DNA of 64,000 nt from a virus. Its lineage: Duplodnaviria > Caudoviricetes. Numbering within the stretch: the first letter of the stretch is position 1; every line of letters starts with the position of its first letter. The notes beneath the pieces are model-generated. The model saw nothing but the letters and a program-made list of their open reading frames with translations. It was not told the DNA's origin and did no database searches. Position numbers and translations under genes: made by a program. Shown here in pieces: positions 43,042-59,000 of this stretch. The DNA lies in the IMG/VR virus record IMGVR_UViG_3300020471_000006, positions 96,001 to 160,000 of that record, one strand, 5' to 3'.

Positions 43042-43051
43042 GGAAAGGCAA

Positions 43052-43990
43052 ATGAATTTACGAGAACTATTAGGAAGAGAATTTGCTTCGACAATACAAG
43101 AAACAGTTGCAGCAAATACTGCACTAGAAAGGAACCACGAAGGTAGAGTATTCTTATTCCATCCTTATTGTAACGAAGGTAACTGTGAAAGTAGTTACAG
43201 AGGTTACTGTCTTCAGTATTGGTGTGTTCCTTGTGGTACTACTCAAGCAACTTTCGAGTTGTGGGGTGGAGGCGGTTCAGGCGGTGGTGCTTGCTGCTGT
43301 CAACAAGGTATGCCTGGTGGTGCTGGAGGATACGTAAGAAAGACTCTTGAGTATCCACAGATACAAGGTGGTTGGTGTTATTCACTCTGTGTTGCATCAC
43401 CTAACTGCTGCTCAAGATGCTGCTGTGGTATTAGAGGATGTAAAACATGGGTTAGTGGTTGTAACTTAAACAACCTCTGTGCTGATGGTGGACTTCCTGG
43501 TAAGACATGTTGCTGGGCTTTCTGGAACTCAACATATAGATGCCAAGATAAAGTTTCTTGGGGTGGATGTGGAGGATGGAGACTTCACGAAGATGGAGCA
43601 TGCTCCTACGGTGGAGATGAGATGATTAAGGGAAGACCTGGTGCTTTCATCACTCACTGTAATGATAATAACTGTTGGACAAAAGGATTGATGCCTTATC
43701 CTGCTGGTCTTATCAATCAAAAAGGTGGATGGTTAACACAAAACTATCAAGGTAATGCATGTATACATCAATACATGTATTGCTCAGGTACGACTCCTTG
43801 GGCGTACAACATTAACTGTAACGGTGGTCCAGGACTTCCTGGAACTGGTGCTCCTTCTGCTACTGCGTGTGGTGGTGGATGCTGTTACGGATGGCGTGGT
43901 GGCGGTGGATTCATTAGAATCACATACTGCTCATGCTGGTTACAGACAAGTTCACAGAACGAAGACTGTGCTTGGTACTACTTTAACTAA
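43052..43990 (+). CDS. Cys/Gly-rich putative receptor-binding or tail-tip protein 2
   Basis: FELWGGGGSGGGACCC; 34 Cys in 312 aa; PYPAG; GGGCC...GFIRIT. Confidence 0.75.
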   Translation: MNLRELLGREFASTIQETVAANTALERNHEGRVFLFHPYCNEGNCESSYRGYCLQYWCVPCGTTQATFELWGGGGSGGGACCCQQGMPGGAGGYVRKTLEYPQIQGGWCYSLCVASPNCCSRCCCGIRGCKTWVSGCNLNNLCADGGLPGKTCCWAFWNSTYRCQDKVSWGGCGGWRLHEDGACSYGGDEMIKGRPGAFITHCNDNNCWTKGLMPYPAGLINQKGGWLTQNYQGNACIHQYMYCSGTTPWAYNINCNGGPGLPGTGAPSATACGGGCCYGWRGGGGFIRITYCSCWLQTSSQNEDCAWYYFN

Positions 43991-43993
43991 ATA
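43987..43993 (+). promoter_or_regulatory. Late promoter variant (CTAAATA)
   Basis: Overlaps the stop of 43052-43990, 20 nt upstream of ATG 44014. Confidence 0.5.
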
Positions 43994-44013
43994 AGAGGAC
44001 AGAGGCACTATAG

Positions 44014-44919
44014 ATGGCTAATACAAATTTACGAGATCTATTAGGATTCGTTACATCAGATTCATTGGAGGGACTATCAGCACCCGATGCTACCACAAAA
44101 CTAGCAAGACTACCGTCTGCTGGTTATTGTGTACAGTATATTCACGGTGCTTGTGGTTCAACTTGTAGTGAACATTCCACCAATTACAACTACTATAGGT
44201 ATCCACTCTGGTGTATTCCTACTGGAGTCTGTGATGTTATCTTCGAAATCTGGGGTGCTGGAGGCGGTGGAGGATCATCCTGCTGCTGTTCTAGGGGCAT
44301 GCCTTCTGGTTCTGGTGCATATGCGTGGAAACGTATTACAGGTGCTGCGTCATCTCTTCAAGGATGTTCATATGATATTCATGTAGGTAGACCTGGTTGT
44401 GGTAGAACTGGATCACAGTGTGGTAATCAAGGTGGTACTAGTTACATCACTGGTTATGGTTTGAGTAACTTCTGTGCTAGAGGTGGACATGGAGGATGCT
44501 CATGCTGCTTCCTATGCTGCTGCACATGGAATGCTCAATCAATGGGTAGTTGCCCTTATGGTTGCTGTGCAACTTATCACGGTGCAGACGGTGGAGCATA
44601 CGGTGTTCCTGGTGCTGCTTACGTATTCTGTTACAATAACCATTGCTGGAACAAACAACACGTTCCTTATCCTGCTGGATTAGTTAATGGTAAAGGTGGT
44701 TGGATGACTGCTGTTACTTGTGAAAACAGTGGATGTGGACATTGCATGCTACATTGGGCATCTGCTCAGTTAGGATGGGGTGGATCATTCTCTGATCACA
44801 ACTATGTACCTGGTGTTGGTGGACCTTCTGGTTGGACTTGCAGTGGTGGTTGTTGTCGTGGAGAGAACGGTACTGCTGGTATGATCCGTATCAACTTCAA
44901 GTACGACGAAAACTTGTAA
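44014..44919 (+). CDS. Cys/Gly-rich putative receptor-binding or tail-tip protein 3
   Basis: FEIWGAGGGGGSSCCC; 29 Cys in 301 aa; PYPAG; SGGCC...GMIRIN. Confidence 0.75.
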   Translation: MANTNLRDLLGFVTSDSLEGLSAPDATTKLARLPSAGYCVQYIHGACGSTCSEHSTNYNYYRYPLWCIPTGVCDVIFEIWGAGGGGGSSCCCSRGMPSGSGAYAWKRITGAASSLQGCSYDIHVGRPGCGRTGSQCGNQGGTSYITGYGLSNFCARGGHGGCSCCFLCCCTWNAQSMGSCPYGCCATYHGADGGAYGVPGAAYVFCYNNHCWNKQHVPYPAGLVNGKGGWMTAVTCENSGCGHCMLHWASAQLGWGGSFSDHNYVPGVGGPSGWTCSGGCCRGENGTAGMIRINFKYDENL

Positions 44920-44923
44920 ATAA

Positions 44924-44931
44924 TATAAATA
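44924..44931 (+). promoter_or_regulatory. Consensus T4 late promoter
   Basis: TATAAATA 24 nt upstream of ATG 44956. Confidence 0.85.
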
Positions 44932-44955: not shown

Positions 44956-45810
44956 ATGGCTTTTACAAAAACATTCACATATAAAGTACCAGATGATTAT
45001 TTGGCACAAACTGATTCTTTAGGAAAGACTGCTGAATGGACATATGATGGTCCAAGATGGTTGTTCGTTTTCGTTGATAAGGAAACTAACAAATGGATTC
45101 CTTCACAGTCATGTATCGGATTGAATAGAGAGCCAACATCTGGTGACATCGAGCATGCAAATGTACGTGCTGGTATAGATGAAATCGCAGTCCAGATTGA
45201 CATGGCTTCTCCTACTGACGAAGAAGCAATCATTGGTTCTATCCTCTTCCCTAAAGATACTGGTAAAGCATCTGGTTATCCACAAAAGGATTACAAGATT
45301 TCTGGAGACGATACAGTATATTACTCACGTCCAGAACCAATCTCTCCTGACCATGCCTATGCAGCTGATGAGATCGAGTATGATCCAGCAGCAGGTGCTT
45401 GGAAGTCTCCTCTTCCTTGGTTCAAGCCTTGGATTTCAATGGAACAGCATAAAGCAGCAAGAGATACTCTAGTTGCAGATGCTCAAGCAAACCTAGACGC
45501 AGAAGCAACTGAGAATGGTGGTCAGGGTAACCTTACTGACCAGCAAAGAGCTGCTCTTACAGCATTTATTGGCGAATTAAACGGTATCTATACAAAGTTC
45601 CCTGCTGCTGATGGTTGGGGACCACACATGATTCCATTCCCTGATGATCCTCGTACTCCTTGGATTGATGGATATGACTATCGTGTTACAGACTACGAAG
45701 AGTTGATTGATGCTGCAACAGGATTAACTAAGTCTTCTGATGTTCCTGCTGCTGATGTTGTTGAAGATGTACAACAACAAACACTTAGAGACGGCACAAA
45801 AGCTGATTAA
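44956..45810 (+). CDS. Hypothetical tail-associated protein (possible assembly chaperone)
   Basis: Follows the three Cys-rich paralogues; acidic; ends in a ...ELNGIYTKFP...IPFP.DP segment reminiscent of fibre chaperone termini. Confidence 0.6.
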   Translation: MAFTKTFTYKVPDDYLAQTDSLGKTAEWTYDGPRWLFVFVDKETNKWIPSQSCIGLNREPTSGDIEHANVRAGIDEIAVQIDMASPTDEEAIIGSILFPKDTGKASGYPQKDYKISGDDTVYYSRPEPISPDHAYAADEIEYDPAAGAWKSPLPWFKPWISMEQHKAARDTLVADAQANLDAEATENGGQGNLTDQQRAALTAFIGELNGIYTKFPAADGWGPHMIPFPDDPRTPWIDGYDYRVTDYEELIDAATGLTKSSDVPAADVVEDVQQQTLRDGTKAD

Positions 45811-45829
45811 AAAGTTCGAGATGGATCGG

Positions 45830-45857
45830 AAGGACGGAGTAAAATCCGTCCTTTTTT
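45830..45857 (+). terminator. Rho-independent terminator
   Basis: AAGGACGGA-gtaaaa-TCCGTCCTT perfect 9-bp stem followed by TTTT. Confidence 0.9.
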
Positions 45858-45862
45858 ATGCG

Positions 45863-45870
45863 TATAAATA
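45863..45870 (+). promoter_or_regulatory. Consensus T4 late promoter heading the enzyme cluster
   Basis: TATAAATA right after the terminator and 48 nt upstream of the GT9 start. Confidence 0.85.
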
Positions 45871-45918
45871 GTAGCGAAGTTGAATAAATCCTTCTATATC
45901 ATTCTATATTAAAATATT

Positions 45919-47100
45919 ATGAGACCCAAATCGTTTTTTATTAACGGTGGAGCTGGACGTGTACTATGCTCTATCCCTGCATTTGAAAAATATGCGGAAG
46001 ACCATCCAGACGAAGACTTTGTAATAGTCTGCGAAGGTGGTACAGATTTCTATAAAGGTCATCCTATTCTACACAGGAAATGCTACGATCACTGGCATAA
46101 AGATCTTTTCGAAGACAAGATTAAACACACAGATATAGTTACACCAGAACCATATAGAATCTGGCATTACTATAATCAAAAATGCAATCTCTCTCAAGCA
46201 TTTGACATTGAGATTAATGGTTTAAAAGAACCAAGAGAACTTCCTGCACCAACAATCAAACTTTCCAGAGAAGAAGAAACAACTGGAATATTTGTTGTAG
46301 AAGAGGTTCGTCAAAGAACTAAGAAAAAGAAAACCGTAGTCTTCCAACCTTTTGGTAGAGGAGTTCAGACTGCTGGTAATATTATTATGGATACTTCTGG
46401 TAGAAGTTTCGAGTTTAATAATGTTGTTAGTATCATTAAGAAGTTGCAGAAAAAATATTCTGTTATTCTTCTATCAGAATTAACAATTGATTTTGAGAAA
46501 GAAGGGATGACTGATACTGTATCTCATCCTGTCAACAGACCATTGAGAGAACTTGCTGGTGCTATTAAAGCAGCAGATTTATTCATTGGATGTGATTCTG
46601 TTGGGCAACATATTGCTAAAGCATTTGGTAAACCAGCAGTTGTAGTTGTTGGGTCTACATTCAAAGAAAATATCAGTTACCCAGATGACAAGAAGTTTAG
46701 TGTTCTTGATATGGGTGAAGGTATGAGAGTATACGATCCTATTCGTATTACTATTGATGAGTATACTAACAGAGTCAATGATCGTATTATGGCGATGAAT
46801 GATAAGGTTGAAGCTGTTATCATGCAAGAGGTTGATAAACTGATGAAGAAGTATTATAAAGCTTCTGATAAAGTTATCAGACTTCCTGATGAGATGCAGC
46901 AGCAAGTAGATTATACTTTACAGATGGAAGAGGACATGAAGAAGCAAATGGCTTCTGGAAAACAACCAACTGTTCCAACAGGTATGATGAAACAATCCAA
47001 CAATCCAAATTTGATTCCAGCATTGATGGCAGATACTAAAGACATTAAACCACTAAGCAAAGTTCCTTCTGGATTTGCTGACTTAGCGAAAGGTAAATAA
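45919..47100 (+). CDS. GT9-like glycosyltransferase (ADP-heptose heptosyltransferase-like)
   Basis: GGAGRV at N-terminus; VVFQPFG; LRELAGAIKAADLFIGCDSVGQHIAKAFGKPAVVVVGST matches the GT9 C-terminal signature. Confidence 0.8.
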   Translation: MRPKSFFINGGAGRVLCSIPAFEKYAEDHPDEDFVIVCEGGTDFYKGHPILHRKCYDHWHKDLFEDKIKHTDIVTPEPYRIWHYYNQKCNLSQAFDIEINGLKEPRELPAPTIKLSREEETTGIFVVEEVRQRTKKKKTVVFQPFGRGVQTAGNIIMDTSGRSFEFNNVVSIIKKLQKKYSVILLSELTIDFEKEGMTDTVSHPVNRPLRELAGAIKAADLFIGCDSVGQHIAKAFGKPAVVVVGSTFKENISYPDDKKFSVLDMGEGMRVYDPIRITIDEYTNRVNDRIMAMNDKVEAVIMQEVDKLMKKYYKASDKVIRLPDEMQQQVDYTLQMEEDMKKQMASGKQPTVPTGMMKQSNNPNLIPALMADTKDIKPLSKVPSGFADLAKGK

Positions 47101-47101
47101 T

Positions 47102-48802
47102 ATGATTATTTTATGTGTTGCACGTGGTCACAACGGTAGTACCACACTAATGGTAGACGGTGAGATAGTCTTCTATCTCGAAGAAGAGAGGCTTAGTAGA
47201 TTTAAGTATGATGGATCTCCTATGCTAGGTATACTTAAAGCATTTGAGTATGTTGATCATATTGATCATCTAGTTGTATGTCATACACATAGATCTGGTC
47301 CTAATTTAGATTGGACTGGTGAGCATATGTATGAGGGATTTGTAAGAAAGATTGCTAGAAAGAAATGGGAATTTGAAACAACTTATATTGATTTGAATCA
47401 CCATGAGATGCATGCTGCATGCGGTTTCTATAATTCTGGATTTGAATCTGCTGCATGTGTTATTGCAGATGGTGCTGGAAGTTTCTTAAATATGCAAGAA
47501 GTTCCAGATACTTTGTATGAATTTGAAACCATCTTCCATGCAGAGTATCCAGAAGAGTTTGAATCTGTATGGAAACATATCGGAACTAAAGCTGCTATTG
47601 GTTTCCATGAACCAGAACCTAATACATTCATTACTGAGTATCCTGGTCATACTAAAATGTATGAAGCAGTAACACAGTACTGTGGATTCCCTGCTATTGA
47701 AGCAGGTAAACTTATGGGTCTTGCACCATATGGTAAACCTAATGATGAACTACCATCATTCTTTAATGGAGAATGGGGTAATAGAGATTTGATTGTTCCA
47801 ACATATCCTAATGCTGCTACTATTAATGAAAGTAGATTCCAAATACTTAAAGATGATCGTAAACAGCATCAACAAGGTGAAGGTGAAAGAATAGATCATA
47901 CAGATGTACAGAAGGATATGGCATATAAGATTCAGGAAGAAACTTCTGAACGTATGTGTCAATTGATTGAGAAAGCAGTTGAGTTAACTGGTGAAAAGAA
48001 CATTGTAGTCTGTGGTGGTTATGGTCTCAACTGTGTAGCAAACTATAAGTACTGGGATCGTTTCCCTGATCTAAACATCTATTGTGAACCTATCTCACAT
48101 GATGGTGGTACATCTATCGGTGGAGCACTTTATAAGTTACATCAACTTACTGATAATGAAGAACCTAGAAAGCAAGCATCTGTTTATTATGGTCCTCAGT
48201 ATGATCCTACTACTTATGAAGATGCTATTGCTGGACGTGATGTAACAGATACTGATTATGATTCAGTTGCTGCACTCATTCGTGGAGGTAATATTGTTAC
48301 TATCTTCCAAGGAAGATCAGAAGGTGGTCCTCGTGCTTTAGGTAATAGATCTATTCTCTTTGATCCTACTGTTAAAGATGGTAAGGATATTGTTAATGGT
48401 GTTAAGCACAGAGAATGGTTCAGACCATTTGCATGTTCTATTAAGAAGGAACACGTTCATGAGTGGTTTGATTTGAAAGGAAGAGATGAAACACCACACA
48501 TGATGTATGCTGTAGAGTGTCTTGAAGGTGTTGAGGAGAAGATTCCGTCAGTAATTCATGTTGATGGAACTTGTCGTATACAAACTGTAACTGAGGAACA
48601 AAATGAACATTACTATAAACTCATTAATGCTTTCCATAAAATTACAGATGTACCTATACTCTTTAACACTAGTTTCAATCTTGGAGGCGAACCTCTTGTT
48701 GAAACTATCCATGATGCGTTAGAGACATTAGATAATAGTGAGATCGAGTACATGTATCTCCCAGAAATTCAAAAGCTAGTTAAGGTTCCTAACCGTGACT
48801 GA
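47102..48802 (+). CDS. O-carbamoyltransferase (NodU/CmcH/TobZ family) 1
   Basis: EEERLSR.K, HHEMHA, DGAG, GKLMGLAPYG, GGYGLNC, GRSEGGPRALGNRSIL, KHREWFRPFA, HVDGTCRIQTV, NTSFN. Confidence 0.93.
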   Translation: MIILCVARGHNGSTTLMVDGEIVFYLEEERLSRFKYDGSPMLGILKAFEYVDHIDHLVVCHTHRSGPNLDWTGEHMYEGFVRKIARKKWEFETTYIDLNHHEMHAACGFYNSGFESAACVIADGAGSFLNMQEVPDTLYEFETIFHAEYPEEFESVWKHIGTKAAIGFHEPEPNTFITEYPGHTKMYEAVTQYCGFPAIEAGKLMGLAPYGKPNDELPSFFNGEWGNRDLIVPTYPNAATINESRFQILKDDRKQHQQGEGERIDHTDVQKDMAYKIQEETSERMCQLIEKAVELTGEKNIVVCGGYGLNCVANYKYWDRFPDLNIYCEPISHDGGTSIGGALYKLHQLTDNEEPRKQASVYYGPQYDPTTYEDAIAGRDVTDTDYDSVAALIRGGNIVTIFQGRSEGGPRALGNRSILFDPTVKDGKDIVNGVKHREWFRPFACSIKKEHVHEWFDLKGRDETPHMMYAVECLEGVEEKIPSVIHVDGTCRIQTVTEEQNEHYYKLINAFHKITDVPILFNTSFNLGGEPLVETIHDALETLDNSEIEYMYLPEIQKLVKVPNRD

Positions 48803-49436
48803 TCATTTTGAAGATATCTTAGTTATTGATGATGTAATCAGTCCAAGATATCAGGAGCATCTTAGACAATCCGTTATGGATTCTAAGTTCCCATGGTACT
48901 TCAATCGTGATATAACAGCACCTTTGTGGTATTGGGAACAGAATAAACTTAATGATTCTAAATTAGAAGTTGAGGATGCTCTATTTACTGGGTTTATGCA
49001 CATCCTTTGGGGGAGAGAGGGTAAGGAATCTGAGTCGTATGATATCTTCGTTCCTCTCTTGTACTCGATGGAAGAAAAGATCAATATGACTATCAAGGAT
49101 CTTGTTCAATTAAGATTGGGTCTCTTTACATTGAACAAGAACAAACACCCTCATCATGTTCCACATGTTGATTATCAGGGTGATGGGTTGAAGTACACAG
49201 CAATCTATTACCTGAATGATAGTGATGGAGATACACATTTCTTTAATGAATTTTTAGATCCTAGTATCAAAAGGTTCATTAATGGGTATGACCCCAGTCT
49301 CTTTACCGTTGCTAAAACTGTTAAACCTAAATCAGGTAGATTAGTTTTATTTGATGGTCGAAGATATCATGCCTCTCGCTATCCAGAGAGCACAACAGAA
49401 CGTATTGTATTGAATATAAATTTTAACCCTGTTTAA
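48795..49436 (+). CDS. 2OG-Fe(II) oxygenase superfamily protein
   Basis: PHVD (HxD), AIYYLNDSDGDT.FF, KSGRLVLFDGRRYHAS (distal His), RIVLNINF. Confidence 0.8.
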   Translation: MTDHFEDILVIDDVISPRYQEHLRQSVMDSKFPWYFNRDITAPLWYWEQNKLNDSKLEVEDALFTGFMHILWGREGKESESYDIFVPLLYSMEEKINMTIKDLVQLRLGLFTLNKNKHPHHVPHVDYQGDGLKYTAIYYLNDSDGDTHFFNEFLDPSIKRFINGYDPSLFTVAKTVKPKSGRLVLFDGRRYHASRYPESTTERIVLNINFNPV

Positions 49437-49438
49437 TT

Positions 49439-51148
49439 ATGTGGATACTTGGTGTTAATAGATCTCATGATGCTGCTATTTGTCTCATGAAAGACAATGA
49501 TGTAGTGCTGTCCATACAGGAAGAGAGATTAACACATGTCAAATATGACAGAGAAGTATTCAATGCTCTGGATAAAGTAGCTGAAATTACTAAAGAAATT
49601 GACTTATGTGCTTATACACATTTGTACAATACTAAATGTGATTTTGGACCTTACTTTAAATACATTAAACGTATAGGGATTAAAGTCAAGAGGTATGTAG
49701 AAGCAAAGGATTATCACCATTCTCTACATGCCTCTTGTGCGTACTATAATTCAGGATTTGATAAAGCAGGTATACTTGTAATAGATGGTGCTGGTGCTGA
49801 CCATGAGTGGGGTAAGGAGAATGAAAGTATATTCTATTTTGATCAAAATCCCAATGCAGTAACATGCCTAAGTCAAAAGATTATTGGGTATTCAAATCAA
49901 AAGGTTGAAGGAGCACCACCATTTGTACATCCTACAAAAAATATTGGTGCTGGATTTGTTTACTCTGGTATCACAGAATATCTGGGATGGGATAGTTTAG
50001 AGTGTGGTAAAACTATGGGTCTTTCATCATATGGAGAACCCAATGATAGAATAAAACAAATGATATCTGAGGATGGTGGAAATGAAAATATATTTACCTT
50101 AACAGATTTCAATGAACATAAGAATGTGAATACTGTTGTTCGTCCTTATGATTACATAGCATATTCTAAGGATGAAGATGATAAGTTCCAAAGACATGCA
50201 GATCTAGCATATAGATTACAAAAAGATTTTGAAGAGTATGTGTATCAAAGAATTATGGATACACATAGATTAAGTGGATGTAATGATATCATCTTTACTG
50301 GTGGATGTGCTTTGAATTGTGTTGGTAACTATAGAATACTACAAAGATTACCAGAACATATTAATCTATATGTTGAACCTATGTCTAGTGACTGTGGTAC
50401 TGCTATGGGAGCAGCATATATTACTTACGCAAGGGAATGCCCTAAGCAGTATAGACGTAAAAGAATAAGACCATTATCACATCTTTATTTTGGTCAACCT
50501 ATTAAGTATGATTATGAATTAAAAGATAATGAATTTAAGGTATGTGAGGTTACACCTCAGAGGGTTGCTGAACTTATTAGTGACGGTAATGTAGTTGCTA
50601 TCTGTCAAGGTAGATCTGAGAATGGTCCTCGTGCTTTAGGTAATCGTTCTATACTATATGATCCCCGTGCTGTAGACGGGAAAGATATTGTTAATAAAGT
50701 AAAGAAGAGAGAACATTGGAGACCGTTTGCTGGCACAGTACTTGCTGATCATGCACATGAATGGTTTGATATGGATAGGTTGCATGAATCACCACATATG
50801 ATGTATGCTGTAAATGTACTAAAATCAATGATAGAGAAGATACCATGTATCACTCATGTCGATGGTACATGTAGAATTCAAACTCTAACAAAAGATCAGA
50901 ATCCAAACTACTATAAATTAATAGAGGCATTCTATGAATTAACAGGTGTGCCGATATTATTCAACACATCTTTTAATTTGGCTGGTGATACTATAGTGGA
51001 AACTATAGATGATGCTTTACTTACTATGAGAGAAAGTGAAATCTGTTATCTTTACTTACCTGAGAAAGCAGAACTACTATTCATACCTGATGCATCAGAA
51101 CCATCTATCAAAAGATTATCATACAAAGATTGTAATTCACTACTATGA
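49439..51148 (+). CDS. O-carbamoyltransferase (NodU/CmcH/TobZ family) 2
   Basis: SHDAAI, QEERL, HHSLHA, DGAG, GKTMGLSSYG, GGCALNC, GRSENGPRALGNRSIL, KKREHWRPFA, HVDGTCRIQT, NTSFN. Confidence 0.93.
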   Translation: MWILGVNRSHDAAICLMKDNDVVLSIQEERLTHVKYDREVFNALDKVAEITKEIDLCAYTHLYNTKCDFGPYFKYIKRIGIKVKRYVEAKDYHHSLHASCAYYNSGFDKAGILVIDGAGADHEWGKENESIFYFDQNPNAVTCLSQKIIGYSNQKVEGAPPFVHPTKNIGAGFVYSGITEYLGWDSLECGKTMGLSSYGEPNDRIKQMISEDGGNENIFTLTDFNEHKNVNTVVRPYDYIAYSKDEDDKFQRHADLAYRLQKDFEEYVYQRIMDTHRLSGCNDIIFTGGCALNCVGNYRILQRLPEHINLYVEPMSSDCGTAMGAAYITYARECPKQYRRKRIRPLSHLYFGQPIKYDYELKDNEFKVCEVTPQRVAELISDGNVVAICQGRSENGPRALGNRSILYDPRAVDGKDIVNKVKKREHWRPFAGTVLADHAHEWFDMDRLHESPHMMYAVNVLKSMIEKIPCITHVDGTCRIQTLTKDQNPNYYKLIEAFYELTGVPILFNTSFNLAGDTIVETIDDALLTMRESEICYLYLPEKAELLFIPDASEPSIKRLSYKDCNSLL

Positions 51149-51783
51149 ACTTAACAGATTTAATATTCGAGAAAAAAGACTTCCTTCCTAAAGATGATTG
51201 TGAGTCATGGATTGATTGGTTTTGGTTGAACCAACAATATCATGATAAGGGGGATTCTGGAAATGAACAAAAACATAAGAAAGCTATACAAGTAGATCCT
51301 ATTGTTGGTGGAGATTTCTGGTGTCAAATTGCTATAGAAACTGATAGAGCTATCAATGCAATGTATGAATGGGGTGCAAAAGATAAACTTCTTTGGAGAG
51401 CACCTTTAGTTTCTTATGATCATTCTATGAGATGCTACCCAAAAAAAGATGGGTGGTTTAAAGATCATATTGATCTATCTCCAACAGATCCATTACTATT
51501 GTCAAGAGTATATGCTATGATAATATATCTTGATGATGTTGAAGAAGGTGGTGAAACAGAGTTTTCATTTTTAGATTATAAAGTTAAACCAGAACAAGGA
51601 AAACTTTTAATGTTCCCTTGTAATCAGATGTATCCATATAGAGAAAACAAACCAATGAGTGGTCCAAAGCATATTGTCACTGCTTTCTTTTGTTCTGATC
51701 TACCTGCTCCACATTATGTAAATAGTCAGCATCCTAATCAACAACATCATAACTTATATTCAAAACACATGGGAATCAAATGA
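51145..51783 (+). CDS. Prolyl-4-hydroxylase-like 2OG-Fe(II) oxygenase with atypical distal ligand
   Basis: FKDHID, IIYLDDVEEGGETEF, KPEQGKLLMFP; expected distal His reads Tyr (YPYRE). Confidence 0.75.
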   Translation: MNLTDLIFEKKDFLPKDDCESWIDWFWLNQQYHDKGDSGNEQKHKKAIQVDPIVGGDFWCQIAIETDRAINAMYEWGAKDKLLWRAPLVSYDHSMRCYPKKDGWFKDHIDLSPTDPLLLSRVYAMIIYLDDVEEGGETEFSFLDYKVKPEQGKLLMFPCNQMYPYRENKPMSGPKHIVTAFFCSDLPAPHYVNSQHPNQQHHNLYSKHMGIK

Positions 51784-52175
51784 TTATTTGGGTTAATGGT
51801 TGCTTTGATGTTCTCCATAGAGGACATTTCGAATTGCTAAATTATGCTAGGTCTTTAGGATCTATGCTTATAGTGGGTATCGATACTGACCGAAAGGTCA
51901 GAGCAGACAAAGGACCAGATAGACCCATCTATCCATTAGAGGATAGGAAGTATCAATTAAGTTCTTTGAAAGCAGTGGACGTAATCCATACGTTTGATTC
52001 AAGACAAGAGCTTGAAGAATTGATAAAAATCATAAACCCTGATATACTAGTGGTAGGTTCTGATTGGAAAAACGGAGACGTAGTAGGACGTGAGTATGCA
52101 AAGAGAGTTGAGTTCTTCGATAGGATCGGAGAATATTCCACAACAAAAACAATACAAGGTCATCGTTATAGGTGA
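51780..52175 (+). CDS. rfaE2: Heptose-1-phosphate adenylyltransferase (HldE/RfaE domain II, cytidyltransferase-like)
   Basis: NGCFDVLHRGH (HxGH), LIVGIDTD..V...KG..RPI, KGSDW-like VGSDW, YSTT. Confidence 0.85.
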   Translation: MIIWVNGCFDVLHRGHFELLNYARSLGSMLIVGIDTDRKVRADKGPDRPIYPLEDRKYQLSSLKAVDVIHTFDSRQELEELIKIINPDILVVGSDWKNGDVVGREYAKRVEFFDRIGEYSTTKTIQGHRYR

Positions 52176-52929
52176 GACTTGTATAGACAAATACGTTTAT
52201 GGCAGGTGTACAAGGTTAAGTCCTGAAGCACCTGTACCAGTAATGGAATACATTCGTACTGAAACAGCAGACGGAATGGCAAGTAATGTAAGACAAAACC
52301 TCTTGTCATTTGGTGTGGATGTATATTTGATGACCAATGAATTAAAACCAGTCAAGACTAGATTTGTAGATGAAAGATCTAATCAACAACTGATGAGATT
52401 GGATGAGAATGATGAGGTTGCTGACTATGGATGGGAGTTACCAACTGGTGATACTTATCCTACTGGTACACCACATACAGAACCTATTGGTGAACCATTT
52501 GATGCCATGATCATATCTGATTATGACAAAGGATTTTTATCAGAAGAAAAGATCTTTGAATTGGTAGAAGCATTCAATGGTCCTGTATTCATAGACAGTA
52601 AGAAAAGTAAACTACCTAAGAAAGGATGCTTCATCAAGATCAATGATTTAGAAAACTCTAAGTTAAAAGGTATATACAGAAATAAGATTGTTACTAAAGG
52701 TTCTGCTGGTGCTGAGTATAAAGGAAAGATATATCCAGGTGAAGCAGTTCCTTGTTTTGATGTAGCAGGTGCAGGAGATACATTCCTTTGTGCTTTGGTT
52801 TACTTTTACTTAGAGTATGGTAAAATAGAAAAAGCAATTCCTTATGCTAATAAGGCTGCTGCTATAGCAGTTCAAAATCATGGTACATACGTTCTTTCTG
52901 GAGATGATATAGATGATATACGTAGTTGA
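52090..52929 (+). CDS. rfaE1: Heptose-7-phosphate kinase (HldE/RfaE domain I, PfkB family); start uncertain
   Basis: VIGETCIDKYVYG...RLSPEAPVPV, ISDYDKG, FIDSK, DVAGAGDTF anion-hole motif. Confidence 0.85.
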   Translation: MSMQRELSSSIGSENIPQQKQYKVIVIGETCIDKYVYGRCTRLSPEAPVPVMEYIRTETADGMASNVRQNLLSFGVDVYLMTNELKPVKTRFVDERSNQQLMRLDENDEVADYGWELPTGDTYPTGTPHTEPIGEPFDAMIISDYDKGFLSEEKIFELVEAFNGPVFIDSKKSKLPKKGCFIKINDLENSKLKGIYRNKIVTKGSAGAEYKGKIYPGEAVPCFDVAGAGDTFLCALVYFYLEYGKIEKAIPYANKAAAIAVQNHGTYVLSGDDIDDIRS

Positions 52930-53233
52930 TATAGATGGTACTATAAGTAATTGTCCTACAGGACAATACGAAAAATCCGAACCAATGATGGATCGGATAG
53001 AGAAGTTAAATAAAATATACGACGAAGGTAACAGTATTATTTTTTATACTGCCAGAGGTATGGGTAGATTTGAAGGTGATGGGATTAAAGCACATGAAGC
53101 ATTCTATGATCTAACCTTCAATCAACTCAAGTCATGGGGGTGTAAGTTTGATGAGTTACACATGGGTAAATTTCATGCACATTATTTCATAGATGATAAA
53201 GGAGTGAATTCAGATGATTTCTTCAATACTTGA
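52913..53233 (+). CDS. HAD-superfamily phosphatase (capsule-biosynthesis phosphatase-like)
   Basis: VVDIDGTI (DxDGT), FYTARG, GK....YFIDDK. Confidence 0.8.
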   Translation: MIYVVDIDGTISNCPTGQYEKSEPMMDRIEKLNKIYDEGNSIIFYTARGMGRFEGDGIKAHEAFYDLTFNQLKSWGCKFDELHMGKFHAHYFIDDKGVNSDDFFNT

Positions 53234-53762
53234 ACCCGAAGATCTTCTTGATCCGTTTACTGTTGATTGGATCAATAAAGAACTTTATGAATATCCTGTA
53301 TCATATGGACACAGAGCTTGTGATGATGGAGATGATTTTTTCGGAAGAATATTCTTTTGGGGTGAATGGCGTGAACAGTTCCATCAGAAGAACCTACCAG
53401 CCAGTGTAGATTACTTAACTAATTTTGTAGCCACATGGTTACCATCTGCAACTAATAAAGAATTTGTAGATCTAAGAAGAATTGTATTGAATGCTGCATG
53501 TCCTAATCAACGTGGAGGTGTGCATTGGGATTCTAATGACCCATCAGTCTGGACTGTGCTATACTATATTACTGATAGTTCTGGTGATACCAACATATAC
53601 GATGGAGATTTTGAAGAAGGTGTTGAGGCAAGAAACCTTGTCCACACATGTAAATACAAGCAAGGAAAGTTTGTTGCTTTTCCTTCTACCTATATTCATA
53701 ATGCGGAGGCCCCAGAATCAGGATGGAGAATGAGTTTAGCGTGGGGTATTCAACTCCGATGA
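53214..53762 (+). CDS. 2OG-Fe(II) oxygenase superfamily protein
   Basis: GVHWD (HxD), TVLYYI, GKFVAFPSTYIHNA, WRMSLA. Confidence 0.8.
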   Translation: MISSILEPEDLLDPFTVDWINKELYEYPVSYGHRACDDGDDFFGRIFFWGEWREQFHQKNLPASVDYLTNFVATWLPSATNKEFVDLRRIVLNAACPNQRGGVHWDSNDPSVWTVLYYITDSSGDTNIYDGDFEEGVEARNLVHTCKYKQGKFVAFPSTYIHNAEAPESGWRMSLAWGIQLR

Positions 53763-54100
53763 AGATTGTACAGAAAGGTTGGGGATATGAGAAGTGGATC
53801 TGCAATTCTGAAAAGTATTGTGGGAAGCTTCTATTCTTTAATGCAGGTAAGAAGTGTTCATACCATTATCACAAGATTAAAGATGAAACATTCTATGTTC
53901 AGAGTGGTGAACTAAAGATGACCTATGGTTATAGAGATGATTTTATTGATGCAGACACAATCATATTAAAACCAGGAGATAAGTTTTACATACCTCCTGG
54001 TCTTAGACATATGATGGAAGGCATCACAGACGTAGAACTATTCGAATTTTCTACAGAGCATTTTGAGGAGGACTCGTACCGTGTTCTAAGGGGTGATTAA
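53759..54100 (+). CDS. Cupin-fold sugar isomerase-like protein
   Basis: ATGA-coupled start at 53759; KGWGYEKW, CSYHYHKIKDETFYVQSG, IPPGLRH cupin motifs. Confidence 0.8.
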   Translation: MKIVQKGWGYEKWICNSEKYCGKLLFFNAGKKCSYHYHKIKDETFYVQSGELKMTYGYRDDFIDADTIILKPGDKFYIPPGLRHMMEGITDVELFEFSTEHFEEDSYRVLRGD

Positions 54101-54875
54101 TATAGTCCTCTACATTTGTAAATTCATACTTATTAGCCCAGAACATATCTGCACAGGTATAGAATTGATATTTTCCTTGTAAGTGTACAGGGAAATCTAT
54201 CTCTTCTATCTGTGCATTATATTTGTCTGCAATTATTTCAGCAATATCTCTGAAGGAATGTGGGTGTCCTGTACCAAGATCATATACTCCTGATTCCAAT
54301 TGGTTGTTCAGAACTAAGTCAACAACATCACCAACGTATATAAAGTCTCTAACCATCTTCTCAGAGTTCTTAAAGATTTTAATTTTACCTGTCATCTTTG
54401 CTTCCTCAGTAAATTTACTGATAGGACTGCGTTGGTTTCCTTTATGCTCTTCACCTTCTCCATATACATTGAAGAATCTGAATCCTTGAATATTTTCAAA
54501 TAGATCTATATTGTCTTGTACCCAGTAGTCTACTTGAACTTTTGATATAGCATAGTAATTCAAAGGATTGATATTACCTGCTGAGTTTCCATAGACAGAT
54601 GCAGACGAGGCATACTTAACTGGTATACCTAGTTCTATTGCTTTCTTAAATAGTCTTATTGAAAACTCAGTATTGTAAATTGTGATCTTTCCAATATCAG
54701 TTTCTGTTGTACTTGATATTGCTCCCATGTGAATGATTTCATCGATATCATCCCAGACAGGTAGGTTGTCTAGTAACTGAAAAGCGTTTCCCATTTCAAA
54801 CCCGATGAATTTTCCATCAAGTTGATCGGCAAACTTCTTTCCGATGAACCCATTGCATCCTGTAAGAATTTTCAT
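54051..54875 (-). CDS. hldD: ADP-L-glycero-D-manno-heptose 6-epimerase (extended SDR)
   Basis: TGCNGFIG, HMGAISSTTE, YASSASVYG, PLNYYAISK (YxxxK), RFFNVYG..E.HKG, RDFIYV.DV, GKYQFYTCAD. Confidence 0.9.
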   Translation of the reverse strand: MKILTGCNGFIGKKFADQLDGKFIGFEMGNAFQLLDNLPVWDDIDEIIHMGAISSTTETDIGKITIYNTEFSIRLFKKAIELGIPVKYASSASVYGNSAGNINPLNYYAISKVQVDYWVQDNIDLFENIQGFRFFNVYGEGEEHKGNQRSPISKFTEEAKMTGKIKIFKNSEKMVRDFIYVGDVVDLVLNNQLESGVYDLGTGHPHSFRDIAEIIADKYNAQIEEIDFPVHLQGKYQFYTCADMFWANKYEFTNVEDYINHPLEHGTSPPQNAL

Positions 54876-54882
54876 ATAAATA
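54875..54882 (+). promoter_or_regulatory. Consensus T4 late promoter overlapping the hldD start codon
   Basis: TATAAATA 31 nt upstream of ATG 54914; its first T is the complement of the A of the minus-strand ATG. Confidence 0.8.
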
Positions 54883-54913
54883 ACTAACGATTGTAATATA
54901 AACCCCCAAAGTT

Positions 54914-56044
54914 ATGGCTACTTATGGTGCTCTAGCAGCTATAGTCCCACCAGTCAAGACTAGGACAGTTCTTCATGAGGCTCCAGCAGCAAAGCTGGTA
55001 GAGGCAAAAATTTCAATATCTCACCAAAGTCCATACCCAGTAAGAGTAAGGATCGGAGTTTCAAGTGGTGCGTTGTTGGCTTTCGCTCCATCGAACTACA
55101 TCCTATATGACATGGAGATTCAGTCTGGAGAGACTTATGAAACTCAAACTATGTACTATGCCAATGGGCAAAGTCTGATTGTATATAGTGATTACGAAAC
55201 TACCTCTTTCTTGGTACATGGAGAAGTTGTTGATAACCCAGTTGGTTCTGGATTCTTAAATTCTGCTCTTGTAACTACTGCTAGAACTAATACTAGTATC
55301 TACACAGTACCTACTGGTGAAGACGTAGAACTTTCGATCTTCGTTTCTAACCAGAGTCACACTCCTTCTAGATTCAGAATAGGAATCTTAGAGGATGGAC
55401 AAACAGAATTACAGACTTCAAACTACTTAAATTATAACACGAAACTATTTCCTAGAACATTCTATCAGAGAACTGACATTAAAGCAACAGGAGATCAACA
55501 GATTATTGTGTGGGCTGAGGATGCCAACATAATGAGTTTTGCTGTATATGGTAAGTTTAAGTATAACATTATTGCAACTGACTTCAGTGTTAATGGGAAC
55601 TTTACTGTTGTTGGAGACTCTGATTTACAACAAAATGTTGGTGTTGGTGGAACTCTTGACGTTACAGGAGCTGCAACTTTTCTTGATGCTGTCACTGTAG
55701 ACGGTGAACTAGGAGCCAAAAGTGGTATCAAAGGTGGTGCTGATTTAACTACTCCTACCTTTAGTGTTTCTGCTGCTGGTGCTATTGCTGGTGCTAGTGC
55801 TTCTGTTACATCTGCTCTTGCTTGTGGTACTACCTTCGGGGTTGGTGGTACTAAGTTCACAGTAGATGCAGATGGTAACACAGTTGTAGATGGAACCTTA
55901 GATGTACACAGTGGTGTTACTGCTGATCTAAGTCTTCTAAATAATAAAATAACGAATCTAGGTAGAGCTACTGCGCCAGGGGATGCAATGTCCAAGACTG
56001 CTGTAGACTCCCAAGTAACTGCATTAGCAATTGCACTTTCATAA
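54914..56044 (+). CDS. Virion structural protein with two 41415-type domains and a short-repeat stalk
   Basis: Two modules like SIYTVP...IFVSNQS...RIGI...YLNYN; then repetitive V.G.L.V.G; C-terminal ITNLG......DA. Confidence 0.7.
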   Translation: MATYGALAAIVPPVKTRTVLHEAPAAKLVEAKISISHQSPYPVRVRIGVSSGALLAFAPSNYILYDMEIQSGETYETQTMYYANGQSLIVYSDYETTSFLVHGEVVDNPVGSGFLNSALVTTARTNTSIYTVPTGEDVELSIFVSNQSHTPSRFRIGILEDGQTELQTSNYLNYNTKLFPRTFYQRTDIKATGDQQIIVWAEDANIMSFAVYGKFKYNIIATDFSVNGNFTVVGDSDLQQNVGVGGTLDVTGAATFLDAVTVDGELGAKSGIKGGADLTTPTFSVSAAGAIAGASASVTSALACGTTFGVGGTKFTVDADGNTVVDGTLDVHSGVTADLSLLNNKITNLGRATAPGDAMSKTAVDSQVTALAIALS

Positions 56045-56067
56045 AAAAGATCGAGGGAAATTAAAAA

Positions 56068-59000
56068 ATGGCTAAAAGGCAAATAAGAGACTACGTTTTC
56101 TCACCTGGTCTTTCTGGTGCTGGAACATTGAAGGTTTTGGATAAAGTCAGTCCTGACCAGATTCTGCTGATCACAAACGTTACAGCAAACGTTGTACTTT
56201 ATAACTTTGCTGATAACTCTCAACAGATAGCAGCAGCGTTCACGGAAACATCTGATGGATCTGATCCAGACTTCCCTTTCGCTAGTACGTTATCAAACGG
56301 TGTAACTACCATTACATTCCTGTTTGATACTTCAACATATTCTAATACTGATAACTTAATCATCTTTATTGAAGGTGATGAAGTTAAGATGAGACCATAC
56401 GACTTCGGTACAGACGCTATTGAACGTATGCGTTTTGCTGAGCCTCTTAGTATGCTTGATGCTGACTTTGAGTATGGTATTCAGCCAACTAAATGGCAGA
56501 CAATTGACCTAGTACGTGGATATCCATCTTCCTTCGAGTTTCCAGGTGCTGATGTTGCTGTTAGTTCAATTACAACCGATGCTTCTACAAACAGTGGTGG
56601 TATAGGTCCATCTCTTATTACAGTAGATACTGAATTGGAACATGGATTCTCTGTTGGTGATCCTGTTACACTTAAGGGTGTTAATGATGGTGTAGAGGGA
56701 TTCGCTAAGGCAGAAGGTTCATTCATTATTAGTGATGTTCCAAGTACATCTCAGTTTACTTTCTATGCAAAGGGTAAGGTAGGTCTATCACCTGCTACTA
56801 GTCTATTATCTGGATTTGTTCAGTTAAGGAAAGCAGGTTTCTATACTGGTGCTTCATTAGGAAGCCCTACTCTAGCAGTAGAATCTAATGGTGCTTCTGG
56901 TCAAATATCAACTAGAGGTAATACTGCTGCTGGTGAAAATAGAATTGGTATCAATGCTCCAGGATCACCTCCTCCAATTGGTGCTCCTCTTTCTGCAGCT
57001 GGATTACAAGCTGGTACACAGATAACTGGTTATGTGGGTTCTGATACCGCTATTAATATTACAACATCATTCACAGCACCTGTTTCTACAATCGTTCTTA
57101 ACGATACAACAGGAATTGATATTGGTGCTGCTCTAGATAACGGTTCTGGAACTACAATTTTTGTTACAAACATCGAAACAAATACTATATCTCTATCTGC
57201 ACCATATACAGCAGACAGAACTGGTAACAGTTTCATCTCTACACCAACATCACCAACTACACTTAACTTTGGTAATGGTACTGGAGCATCATTTGATATA
57301 CAAAGAACTTCTGGTGCATACACTGGTGTTGATATTAAACAGACAGTAATGTATGATAATGTTCCAGTAGATACGTATAGTGGACAAGGAACCAATGCTA
57401 CCTTTAACGTTGAAAGGGATGGTACTGCTGGTTCAGCATCTTATGCGAATGTGTTTGTATCTAACAGTGGTAGTACATACTCTGCTACAGAAACAATTGT
57501 TATCTTAGGTACTAACTTAGGTGGTGCTACACCAACTAACGACTTGACTATTACAATTGATTCTGTTGATGTTAACGGTCAAATTCAAAGTATTACTCCT
57601 AGTGGTACAGCAGCAGAAGGAACTCCTTACGCTGGAACTGGATATGCTGTTGGGGAACAAATTGTTATCTATGGTAATGTTCTTGGTGGACAGTCACCAG
57701 CTCATGACTTAAACATCTTCATTAAAACAGTTGGTGCTGCTGGTGAAATTCTTACCTTTACTCCTATTGGTCAAGGTATCTTCTCTACTCAGGAATATAA
57801 TAACGTAACTGGTGCTGCTGGATCTGGTGTTGGTATCAACTCATCATTCAGAGTTACTAGAACAGGTTCTGGTAGTAAGATAGCACAGATTGATGATGTC
57901 GAAGTTGGTGGAATAATAGAATTTGAAGATTTCTTCTCAATTCAAATAACTGATACTGCAACAAGTACAGTTGAAACATTTACTTATGATGCTGCTACTA
58001 ATGATGGTATAACAGAAGTAAGGAACGGACTTATTAATGCTATCAATGATCTTTCTACTGGTTCTGCTTTCGTAAGAGCAAGTGCTGGATCTCCTTCTCA
58101 GACTGGTCTTGCAAAAGTACAATTGACTGCTATAGTTGCTGGTCAAGCATACTCTGTAGTTGCAACTACTACTGAAGGTGGAGGTGGTACTGCTGATGAT
58201 CAAACCATTTCTCATGCAAACTTTATTCCCAATGAGAATACAACAACCACACCAACATATAGTGCTGTTATAATCAACCCTGGTTCTAGTTACCAACCTA
58301 ATGATACTGTTATCATTGATGGTGGAGTCTTAGGTGGTGAAACTGCTACTAATGACTTAACTGTTACTGTAACCAGTGTTGGTGCATCTGGTGAGATCAC
58401 TGCATTCAGTATTGGTGGTACAGCAGCAGACGGTAATGCAACATTCGAGTCACTTACTGCAAACAATATAGCATTTAATGCAACATTCCTACCTAAAATT
58501 TCTGGTGGTAACTATGCTCCTGAAATTGCTAATGGTGGTAGTGGATATCAAATTGGTTATCAATTCTTAATCGGTGGTCAAGAACTTGGTGGTGATCCAA
58601 CCATTAACGATATGACTATCACTGTCACAGACATTGATTATCTAACTGGAGAGATTACTGCTATCACTGCATCTGGTACTCCAGTATCAGGAGAGAGTAT
58701 TGCATTCTATCCATCTGTTTCTTTATCTGCTACAACTAGTGGTATTATTAATAATGGTACTAATATAACTTACTCTGCTATTGCAAGAATAAGTGCAACA
58801 TTCGCTAACAATCATGGATTGGTTCCAGGAAATACAATCCTTGCTGCTATTGATTCTACTGGTAATAACCATGATCTTGCTTCAGGACCATTCTTTATTG
58901 AAGAAGTTCCTAACTTAAACAAGTTTGTTTATACTACAAGAACTACTGGTACTATTGATACTAATACTGCTCTTACTGGTGAACTCTATACTAGACCAGA

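Follow-up and report, generated by a model that had tools for sequence, protein, structure and literature searches.

A putative heptose-transfer module with a carbamoyltransferase in the tail-fibre region of a marine T4-like cyanophage

What do T4-like cyanophages make with the sugar genes that lie between their fibre and neck genes, and where would they put the product? The question is raised by a 64,000-nucleotide stretch of viral DNA (the window; bases 96001–160000 of the 202.5-kb record IMGVR_UViG_3300020471_000006, which CheckV rates as complete). Positions 45828–54875 of the window hold a terminator, the late promoter motif TATAAATA and 11 tightly packed genes, all of which had been listed in an earlier annotation made from the letters alone (the sequence-only reading). 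The cluster itself is already known. Sullivan et al. 2010 (PMC3037559) listed part of the set among cyanophage ‘LPS genes’ (lipopolysaccharide genes), perhaps mere ‘stuffer DNA’ and lacking an identified product, and the sequence-only reading, which described such genes as known in some T4-like cyanophages but without an established product, agrees with the listing of T4-GC 302–308 in that paper. We propose that seven of the genes form a heptose module whose acceptor would be a virion protein of the tail-fibre region, a model that we consider evenly poised, the acceptor being suggested by analogy.

The core of the module is a transferase followed by a carbamoyltransferase (CT1), and a block of five genes with the predicted activities of a sugar supply.

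45919–47100, + strand: GT-B, GT9-fold glycosyltransferase of 393 residues, a putative heptosyltransferase from its predicted fold and donor motif
47102–48802, + strand: O-carbamoyltransferase CT1 of the TobZ/NodU/CmcH type (Carbam_trans_C 200 bits, Carbam_trans_N 67 bits)
51780–52175, + strand: heptose-1-phosphate adenylyltransferase, HldE domain II-like, as a separate gene (TIGR02199, E 3e-33, 114.7 bits; cut-off 181.5)
52096–52929, + strand: heptose-7-phosphate kinase, HldE domain I-like, PfkB type (TIGR02198, E 3e-37, 128.5 bits; cut-off 345)
52913–53233, + strand: small cap-less haloacid dehalogenase-type (HAD) phosphatase of 106 residues with a DIDGT motif (TIGR01689 capsule-biosynthesis phosphatase, E 2e-11)
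53723–54100, + strand: metal-binding cupin with a phosphomannose isomerase (PMI)-like fold and complete HxH...E...H cupin motifs
54051–54875, − strand: HldD-like ADP-heptose 6-epimerase of the short-chain dehydrogenase/reductase type (best solved relative E. coli HldD, 1eq2, 1.9e-34)

At the nucleotide level the 9-kb stretch gave only two short matches of 74% to named phages by megablast, so protein searches were needed. A search of 1.84 billion representative proteins returned 429 relatives of the transferase, 75 of which were aligned, and 80 IMG/VR loci carrying it were examined gene by gene. CT1 was counted at the 69 loci with at least 3 kb of downstream sequence, the sugar block and the accessory genes at the 53 with at least 9 kb. 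CT1 lies 3' of the transferase at all 69. The five sugar genes are all present at 34 loci and all absent from 19, and never occur as a partial set; the block is a portable sugar-supply unit. The seven-gene core corresponds to PSSM2_307–313 of P-SSM2, SSSM7_120–133 of S-SSM7 and SXBG_00216–00222 of S-CAM1, and its place, with fibre genes on one side and neck genes on the other, is shared by at least three cyanomyovirus genera.

The transferase was modelled with AlphaFold (AF2) from the 75-sequence alignment at a predicted local distance difference test score (pLDDT) of 89.8, with a C-terminal tail that is disordered from about residue 359. All 30 top Foldseek matches in the PDB were GT9 enzymes (WaaF, the Veillonella GT9 protein 3tov, TibC and WaaC; E 1e-10 to 1e-7), and the 20 top matches in Swiss-Prot were without exception LPS or autotransporter heptosyltransferases (E to 1e-11). 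Other GT-B families begin at about 1e-6, some three orders of magnitude weaker. A sequence search against solved structures gave no match, and the link to GT9 therefore rests on the fold and the family profile. The Pfam GT9 profile (PF01075) scored 20.5 bits, under its cut-off of 22, with residues 209–251 alone matching. A profile of the family aligns with WaaF and WaaC solely at their nucleotide-sugar donor motif, to which it brings its own D-S-x-G-Q-H; D226 and H231 are invariant in the 75 sequences. Identity to GT9 heptosyltransferases is 11–16%, and the protein falls in PHROG 8954, labelled ‘unknown function’. On its modelled structure the transferase is a strongly diverged GT9-fold enzyme, which fails Pfam membership while its fold and donor site fit; the sequence-only call of ‘GT9’ thus holds for the fold and falls short on the family score. 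ADP-heptose would be its donor, as the gene neighbourhood suggests.

For the carbamoyltransferases, comparison with solved structures recovered TobZ, GdmN and the novobiocin carbamoyltransferase at 1e-43 to 1e-54, and CT1 matched 7xb6 at 5e-54 and TobZ at 6e-48. Both CT1 and a second, accessory copy (CT2, below) have a Kae1-like N domain and a YrdC-like C domain, all scoring far over the cut-off, as expected from the earlier claim of two such enzymes. CT1 may carbamoylate a hydroxyl of the heptose.

In the sugar block, TIGR02199 is the top NCBIfam match of the adenylyltransferase, ahead of glycerol-3-phosphate cytidylyltransferase, and the HxGH motif is present; TIGR02198 is that of the kinase, ahead of ribokinase, with the PfkB motif DVAGAGD. 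Both HldE activities named by the sequence-only reading are therefore present as top matches, with the amendment that they are encoded by separate genes in the order adenylyltransferase, kinase. About 80 nt are common to these two genes, read in different frames, with the kinase starting at GTG 52090, ATG 52096 or TTG 52108. S-CAM1 is annotated with the same overlap, which in S-SSM7 is just 14 nt. The HAD phosphatase has 1xpj and 9iqw as its solved-structure matches and belongs to PHROG 1238, mislabelled ‘phosphoheptose isomerase’; no GmhB model matched it, and it is presumed to be the functional analogue of GmhB. The epimerase aligns to HldD with the blocks kept that contain the equivalents of S116, Y140–K144 and K178, which we take to be the catalytic residues in E. 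coli HldD numbering. Its gene is convergent with that of the cupin, overlapping the cupin 3' end by 50 nt, and lies on the minus strand at 41 of 41 related loci. The adjacency of an ADP-heptose type pathway to a glycosyltransferase and carbamoyltransferases, as first read from the letters, is borne out by these gene identities.

The cupin is the sole core gene left without an assignment, and the pathway lacks its usual first enzyme: the sugar isomerase (SIS)-fold GmhA (PF13580) had no match in the entire 202.5-kb genome. The cupin model (AF2, pLDDT 92) found the C-terminal PMI domain of ManC, RfbM, XanB or AlgA in all 17 of its top Swiss-Prot matches, superposing over 110–115 residues at a root-mean-square deviation of 1.4–1.8 Å (one match 2.6) and 18–28% identity; in the PDB the top matches were the CapF cupin, D-lyxose isomerases and archaeal PMIs. 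Pfam MannoseP_isomer and TIGR01479 also matched, both under threshold. GmhA converts the 2-ketose phosphate sedoheptulose-7-phosphate into a manno-aldose phosphate, as in PMI chemistry. Because its fold is PMI-like, the chemistry of PMI is that of the GmhA step and the phage has no GmhA, we read the cupin as the missing isomerase; on its modelled structure it is probably a sedoheptulose-7-phosphate isomerase in GmhA's place. A reading as an RmlC-like epimerase is disfavoured by the full metal motif and the match to the PMI domain. The cupin more likely starts at 53759, in an ATGA shared with the stop codon of the oxygenase gene before it (Oxy3, below), and its length is 113–125 residues.

Two elements precede the transferase.

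45828–45855 (element to 45858), + strand: intrinsic-terminator-like hairpin with U run (11-bp stem, −16.9 kcal/mol)
45863–45870, + strand: T4-type late promoter motif TATAAATA, 56 nt 5' of the transferase ATG (45919)

The hairpin is more stable than shuffled sequences (z = −3.8) and closes the upstream fibre unit, whose last gene ends at 45810; most relatives have a comparable GC hairpin and T run just before the promoter motif. In the window TATAAATA occurs nine times, always on the + strand, and eight of these copies are intergenic, just 5' of + strand genes. Across relatives, [ACT]TAAATA was found between −100 and −10 of the transferase start at 47 of 51 distinct loci, compared with 3.1% of control windows. 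Gene junctions within the cluster mostly overlap or are 1–2 nt long, and from these sequence features the + strand genes would form one unit behind a T4-type late promoter, with late timing as the likely consequence. On the minus strand no late motif was found between 41 and 57 kb, hence none 5' of the HldD-like epimerase. The sequence-only reading had placed HldD in a tightly packed, late-expressed run: a late-type promoter is supported for the + strand genes, and the HldD-like gene is present but lies on the opposite strand, outside that unit. The divergent epimerase and fibre genes are 38 nt apart (54876–54913), and this gap has TATAAATA on its + strand and, on its minus strand, no more than a TACAAT-like hexamer some 16 nt ahead of the ATG of the epimerase. 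In metatranscriptome libraries of two studies there are contigs that span the module and its flanks at 90–99% identity, and show its presence in RNA libraries only; two long ones end at 45796 and 45983, near the terminator, a weak hint at most.

Four further genes of the cluster do not belong to the core.

48795–49436, + strand: 2-oxoglutarate (2OG)-Fe(II) oxygenase Oxy1 (PF13640, 32 bits; triad H124-x-D126...H192)
49439–51148, + strand: second O-carbamoyltransferase, CT2 (Pfam 198 and 95 bits)
51145–51783, + strand: 2OG-Fe(II) oxygenase Oxy2, prolyl-4-hydroxylase-like (PF13640, 37.6 bits; HxD...H triad)
53214–53762, + strand: 2OG-Fe(II) oxygenase-like Oxy3, the rarest of the accessory genes (PF13640, 20.6 bits; H104-x-D106...H162)

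With a PF13640 cut-off of 27 bits, two of the three oxygenases previously called here pass and Oxy3 does not, yet it has the triad. Oxy2 matched bacterial prolyl 4-hydroxylase structures weakly (E 3e-4), and solved structures gave no informative relatives for Oxy1 and Oxy3. Oxy1 occurs at 17 of the 53 loci and Oxy3 at 6; Oxy1, Oxy2 and CT2 are confined to the closest relatives. CT2 has no counterpart in the S-CAM1 and P-SSM2 clusters, and neither the S-CAM1 cluster nor the + strand run of P-SSM2 contains an oxygenase; P-SSM2 has a single one on the minus strand, beside the epimerase. We conclude that the oxygenases and CT2 are accessory. A recent duplication of a carbamoyltransferase–oxygenase pair is ruled out, as CT1 and CT2 are 38% identical and Oxy1 and Oxy2 hardly alignable, which makes them old additions. 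The idea of one pathway that includes hydroxylation of the sugar finds no support in these comparisons, the oxygenases being limited to close relatives and prolyl-hydroxylase-like rather than sugar-specific.

The module is bordered by the following genes.

37264–41358: fibre-like protein of 1364 residues, 5' of the Cys-rich paralogues, with five CBM_5_12 carbohydrate-binding modules (Pfam E 1e-16)
42115–44919, + strand: three tandem Cys-rich, Gly-rich fibre-like paralogues (PHROG 4205, E 1e-61 to 1e-86)
44956–45810, + strand: protein of 284 residues directly 5' of the module (PHROG 9740, a family of unknown function), with its own TATAAATA at 44924
from 54914, + strand: tail-fibre protein of 376 residues (PHROG 11338, 4e-95), behind TATAAATA at 54875
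within 54914–61128, + strand: virion structural protein of 1686 residues (PHROG 5838)

The neck genes gp13 and gp14 come next downstream, as identified by tblastn to the genes of relatives, and the gene order of S-CAM1 is identical. The earlier statement that virion genes flank the cluster on both sides is therefore correct, with the fibre-like PHROG 4205 proteins upstream and PHROG 11338, PHROG 5838 and gp13/gp14 downstream. The Cys-rich paralogues contain about 10% Cys and 15–18% Gly, have a weak match to a tail-fibre PHROG as well, and lie 5' of the transferase at about 45 of the 80 related loci; they are candidates for the acceptor, or mere neighbours. The 284-residue protein has no Pfam match even at E = 1, and homologues of it lie 5' of the transferase at most related loci, including those on giant-phage contigs. 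Nor has it any similarity to the tail-fibre assembly protein encoded on contig L095.

Does the host provide the sugar? Large structural genes, the gp13/gp14 neck genes and psbA in the window identify the phage as a T4-like cyanomyovirus. Among named phages it is closest to S-CAM1 and S-CAM3 of Synechococcus, with 69% identity in the cluster's first gene, and its own host is likely to be Prochlorococcus, given that its PsbA shares 95% identity with the protein of a Prochlorococcus strain. Marine Synechococcus LPS contains neither heptose nor the sugar acid Kdo, according to Snyder et al. 2009 as cited in PMC4515613. In 81 genomes of the Prochlorococcus/Synechococcus family, a strong HldE-like kinase was found in 13 and a GmhA-like match (E ≤ 0.001) in 19, 15 of these at E < 1e-25; the remaining genomes had neither. 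Where both are listed (about one genome in six, e.g. G017, G020, G029, G044 and G067) they are co-located in what look like variable islands, and some hosts may make heptose glycans themselves. Since most of the hosts searched lack the heptose pathway, a phage that needs ADP-heptose must make its own. Of the 81 genomes, 80 gave no match to the transferase family, and the single weak match is a host gene beside such an island.

Taken together, the cluster can be read as a phage-borne, self-contained glycan-tailoring module. Sedoheptulose-7-phosphate, an intermediate of the Calvin cycle and the pentose-phosphate pathway, would be turned into ADP-L-glycero-β-D-manno-heptose by the five sugar genes: the PMI-like metal cupin, replacing the absent GmhA, would convert the ketose into the aldose, the PfkB kinase would form the 1,7-bisphosphate, the small HAD phosphatase would strip the 7-phosphate, the HldE-domain-II-like enzyme would attach AMP, and the HldD-like epimerase encoded on the opposite strand would invert C6. 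The GT9-fold transferase would then place the heptose on its acceptor and CT1 would carbamoylate a hydroxyl of the product, to which CT2 and the three prolyl-hydroxylase-like oxygenases would add accessory tailoring in this lineage. By analogy with the GT9 autotransporter heptosyltransferases, the acceptor would be a cytoplasmic virion protein of the tail-fibre region.

Distant homologues of the transferase (26–30% identity) that have no sugar genes with them bear on the virion as target. On one T4-like contig such a homologue stands directly after a tail-fibre assembly gene and before gp13–gp15, and in Vibrio phage D505 (78 kb) between two giant tail or structural genes. All transferase homologues whose context was examined are on phage contigs; three further distant ones stand on contigs too short to show their neighbours. 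One metagenomic phage contig (L182, 1–7359), in which the homologue is readable only if TAG encodes Gln, has a sulfotransferase where a carbamoyltransferase stands elsewhere, and its epimerase is on the same strand; this recoded phage would carry a sulfo-heptose form of the module. Its genes are ordered methyltransferase, a 438-residue unknown, sulfotransferase, transferase, PfkB kinase, nucleotidyltransferase, cupin, HAD-like protein and epimerase. The tail-module homologues and the heptose-gene neighbourhood of L182 tie the transferase to both tail modules and heptose supply, and because distant homologues adjoin tail genes in unrelated phages we favour a virion protein as the acceptor. Another group of loci (L057–L078, e.g. 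L068, 9986–14212) lies on contigs of 60–126 kb that CheckV rates as 18–35% complete, which suggests very large phages; here two paralogues of the 284-residue protein are followed by the transferase, a 272-residue unknown, a carbamoyltransferase and a small methyltransferase.

A cytoplasmic virion acceptor is also preferred over the host surface because the cluster proteins have no membrane segment and the cluster no flippase, ligase or polymerase, because the promoter is of late type, and because precedents exist: the GT9 enzymes TibC and Aah O-heptosylate adhesins in the cytoplasm, and mycobacteriophage glycosyltransferases modify the phages' own capsid and tail proteins (Freeman et al. 2023, as cited in PMC12619734). 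The virion target proposed from the letters alone thus gains comparative context, from the fibre/neck position and the tail-module homologues, while the acceptor itself stays conjectural.

Several observations weigh against this model. The transferase, kinase and adenylyltransferase all score under their curated family cut-offs. The transferase is as similar to the heptosyltransferases of LPS as to those that act on proteins, and it starts at the GT-B core, so that the N-terminal part of TibC is absent and the model aligns with TibC residues 97–393 only. At the presumed position of the WaaC catalytic base, the N-terminal Asp after strand 1 (Asp13), the family has G-G-x-G-R and no evident Asp; its conserved E77, E119 or D158 could act as the base instead. 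The CapF domain, a nucleotide-sugar C3 epimerase, matches the cupin at the same E-value as the sugar isomerases do, and a CapF-like epimerase role is the alternative for this protein. The late promoter does not serve the epimerase gene. It is common for accessory genes to be inserted close to tail genes and yet not to act on the virion. P-TIM68, S-T4 and S-SM2 carry the sugar block in a non-structural, hli-proximal region with other glycosyltransferases and no GT9-like gene, so that cyanophages have at least one further use for heptose. Published virion proteomes are of phages without the module, and a literature search found no infection time course or virion proteome of P-SSM2 that covers it. 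In P-TIM68 (159921–178652) and S-T4 (69788–88612) the sugar block is hli-proximal, with a transketolase-like gene, dehydrogenases and a membrane protein.

If the virion is not the target, carbamoyl-heptose could be placed on host LPS or on a lipid-linked or surface glycoconjugate, blocking superinfection or the adsorption of progeny to debris. LPS cores are the classical GT9 acceptors and WaaC, WaaF and WaaQ are among the nearest folds; carbamoyl-heptose is found in the Pseudomonas LPS core; ‘LPS genes’ is the name given to these genes in the literature; and the sugar block of P-TIM68 and S-T4 sits within multi-glycosyltransferase clusters that include a membrane protein. The canonical acceptor, however, is missing if marine Synechococcus LPS has neither Kdo nor heptose, as the report cited above has it, and a lytic phage that uses a late promoter has little time left in which to change a surface. 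Transferase homologues lie in tail modules even of phages without sugar genes, and the family was not found in 80 of 81 host-family genomes. Host-surface remodelling, which the sequence-only reading had offered beside a virion target, is weakened by the composition of Synechococcus LPS and by the lack of membrane segments, flippase, ligase and polymerase in the cluster, and we regard it as unlikely. Nor need the transferase and the sugar genes act together: the transferase–CT1 pair might use another donor, or include a GT9-derived fibre assembly factor, and the heptose genes might serve, for example, a soluble metabolite. Such a split would explain the 19 of 53 loci where the pair has no adjacent heptose genes, the heptose block without this transferase in P-TIM68, S-T4 and S-SM2, the sub-threshold Pfam score and the N-terminal catalytic Asp that is not evident. 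It is harder to reconcile with a donor-binding motif that is invariant in the family, with heptosyltransferases as all top fold matches, and with the adjacency of transferase and heptose block in independent lineages, including the TAG = Gln phage with a sulfotransferase. Heptose genes are non-adjacent in five larger contigs, three of which have a kinase-like match elsewhere (one strong, two weak), and phages whose hosts contain heptose, as Vibrio does, could do without the pathway. We find two unrelated neighbours quite improbable.

Modification of phage DNA was the other alternative raised from the letters, with oxygenase, transferase and carbamoyltransferase building a glycosylated, carbamoylated base. 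Phage GT-B enzymes acting with a HAD or kinase and a cytidylyltransferase can indeed put heptose on 5-hydroxymethylcytosine, and the cluster has oxygenases. These are prolyl-hydroxylase-like and not conserved with the module, though, the transferase is GT9-like and not like the T4 β-glucosyltransferase, and the late structural region is where the genes lie. The prerequisites were also not found: the complete genome has no gene of the C5 cytosine methyltransferase, Tet/JBP, ThyA or dCMP-hydroxymethylase families, the Tet/JBP result being a weak negative as the Tet_JBP control matched nowhere. Base hypermodification is thus very improbable. Lastly, the genes could be non-functional cargo recently acquired from bacteria, the ‘stuffer’ DNA whose possibility Sullivan et al. 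2010 (PMC3037559) raised. Loci of several lineages that have diverged to 48–97% protein identity nevertheless keep intact frames, gene order, catalytic motifs and the promoter, and contigs from the metatranscriptome libraries of two studies cover the genes, so that idle cargo is scarcely credible.

A heptose module directed at the virion may also be part of a wider pattern. We tentatively suggest, as a possibility that we rate below even, that several unrelated marine lineages share a phage-specific, GT9-fold O-heptosylation of tail-fibre or receptor-binding proteins, with an interchangeable capping partner: a carbamoyltransferase in cyanophages, a sulfotransferase in the TAG = Gln phage and a methyltransferase on the giant-phage contigs. 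Cyanophages would then import the full ADP-heptose pathway because their hosts make no heptose, with the PMI-like cupin as a hitherto unrecognised, non-orthologous sedoheptulose-7-phosphate isomerase.

Picocyanobacteria and T4-like phages are among the most abundant host–virus pairs of the ocean, and this gene set has stood as unexplained ‘LPS genes’ since 2005–2010. Added here are a fold-based assignment of the transferase, the recognition of the cupin as PMI-like, the finding that the sugar block comes whole or not at all, the absence of the pathway from most hosts searched and the tail-module homologues in unrelated phages. Decoration of fibres, if true, would be the first viral protein heptosylation and carbamoylation and would bring a new variable into host range and adsorption. 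Should the cupin be the isomerase, a non-orthologous first step would be added to the ADP-heptose pathway, which is under study both as an antibiotic target and because its product ADP-heptose is an innate-immune signal, and three widespread database annotations, ‘hypothetical protein’, ‘phosphoheptose isomerase’ and ‘cysteine dioxygenase’, could be corrected.

These are the names that published cyanophage records give to the transferase, the HAD phosphatase and the cupin, respectively. The closest known system is T4-GC 302–308 of P-SSM2, S-SSM7 and S-CAM1, which has the same seven core genes in the same order, with the epimerase on the opposite strand, the same position between fibre and neck genes and a transferase 50–70% identical to the one described here; this phage adds CT2 and the three oxygenases. 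With the bacterial GmhA–HldE–GmhB–HldD pathway the phage shares the kinase, the adenylyltransferase, the HldD-like epimerase and the logic from 7-phosphate through 1,7-bisphosphate and 1-phosphate to ADP-sugar. It differs in having a PMI-like cupin instead of the SIS-fold GmhA and a 106-residue capsule-type HAD protein instead of GmhB, and the two domains of bacterial HldE are separate genes in reverse order. The cupin superposes on the type II PMI domain of ManC, XanB and AlgA with the full metal-binding motif, whereas it stands alone, falls under the Pfam and NCBIfam thresholds and would act on a seven-carbon substrate.

The glycosylation of mycobacteriophage virions, as far as it is described in the source cited above, involves other transferase families, sugars and hosts, with no sugar-nucleotide pathway or carbamoylation. 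Heptosyltransferase and NodU/CmcH-type carbamoyltransferase are combined, as here, in the 7-O-carbamoyl-heptose of Pseudomonas (WaaC/WaaF with WapO, PA5005). There the acceptor is Kdo-lipid A in LPS, whereas the phage genes lie in a tail module and host LPS appears to lack Kdo and heptose. The transferase has the GT-B fold and C-terminal nucleotide-sugar motif in common with WaaC, WaaF and WaaQ and with TibC and Aah, but not the N-terminal extension of TibC and Aah, which holds an iron-binding motif in enzymes that form a dodecameric ring. TibC and Aah are encoded next to their adhesin substrate; in several lineages fibre-like proteins adjoin the phage gene, as candidate substrates at most.

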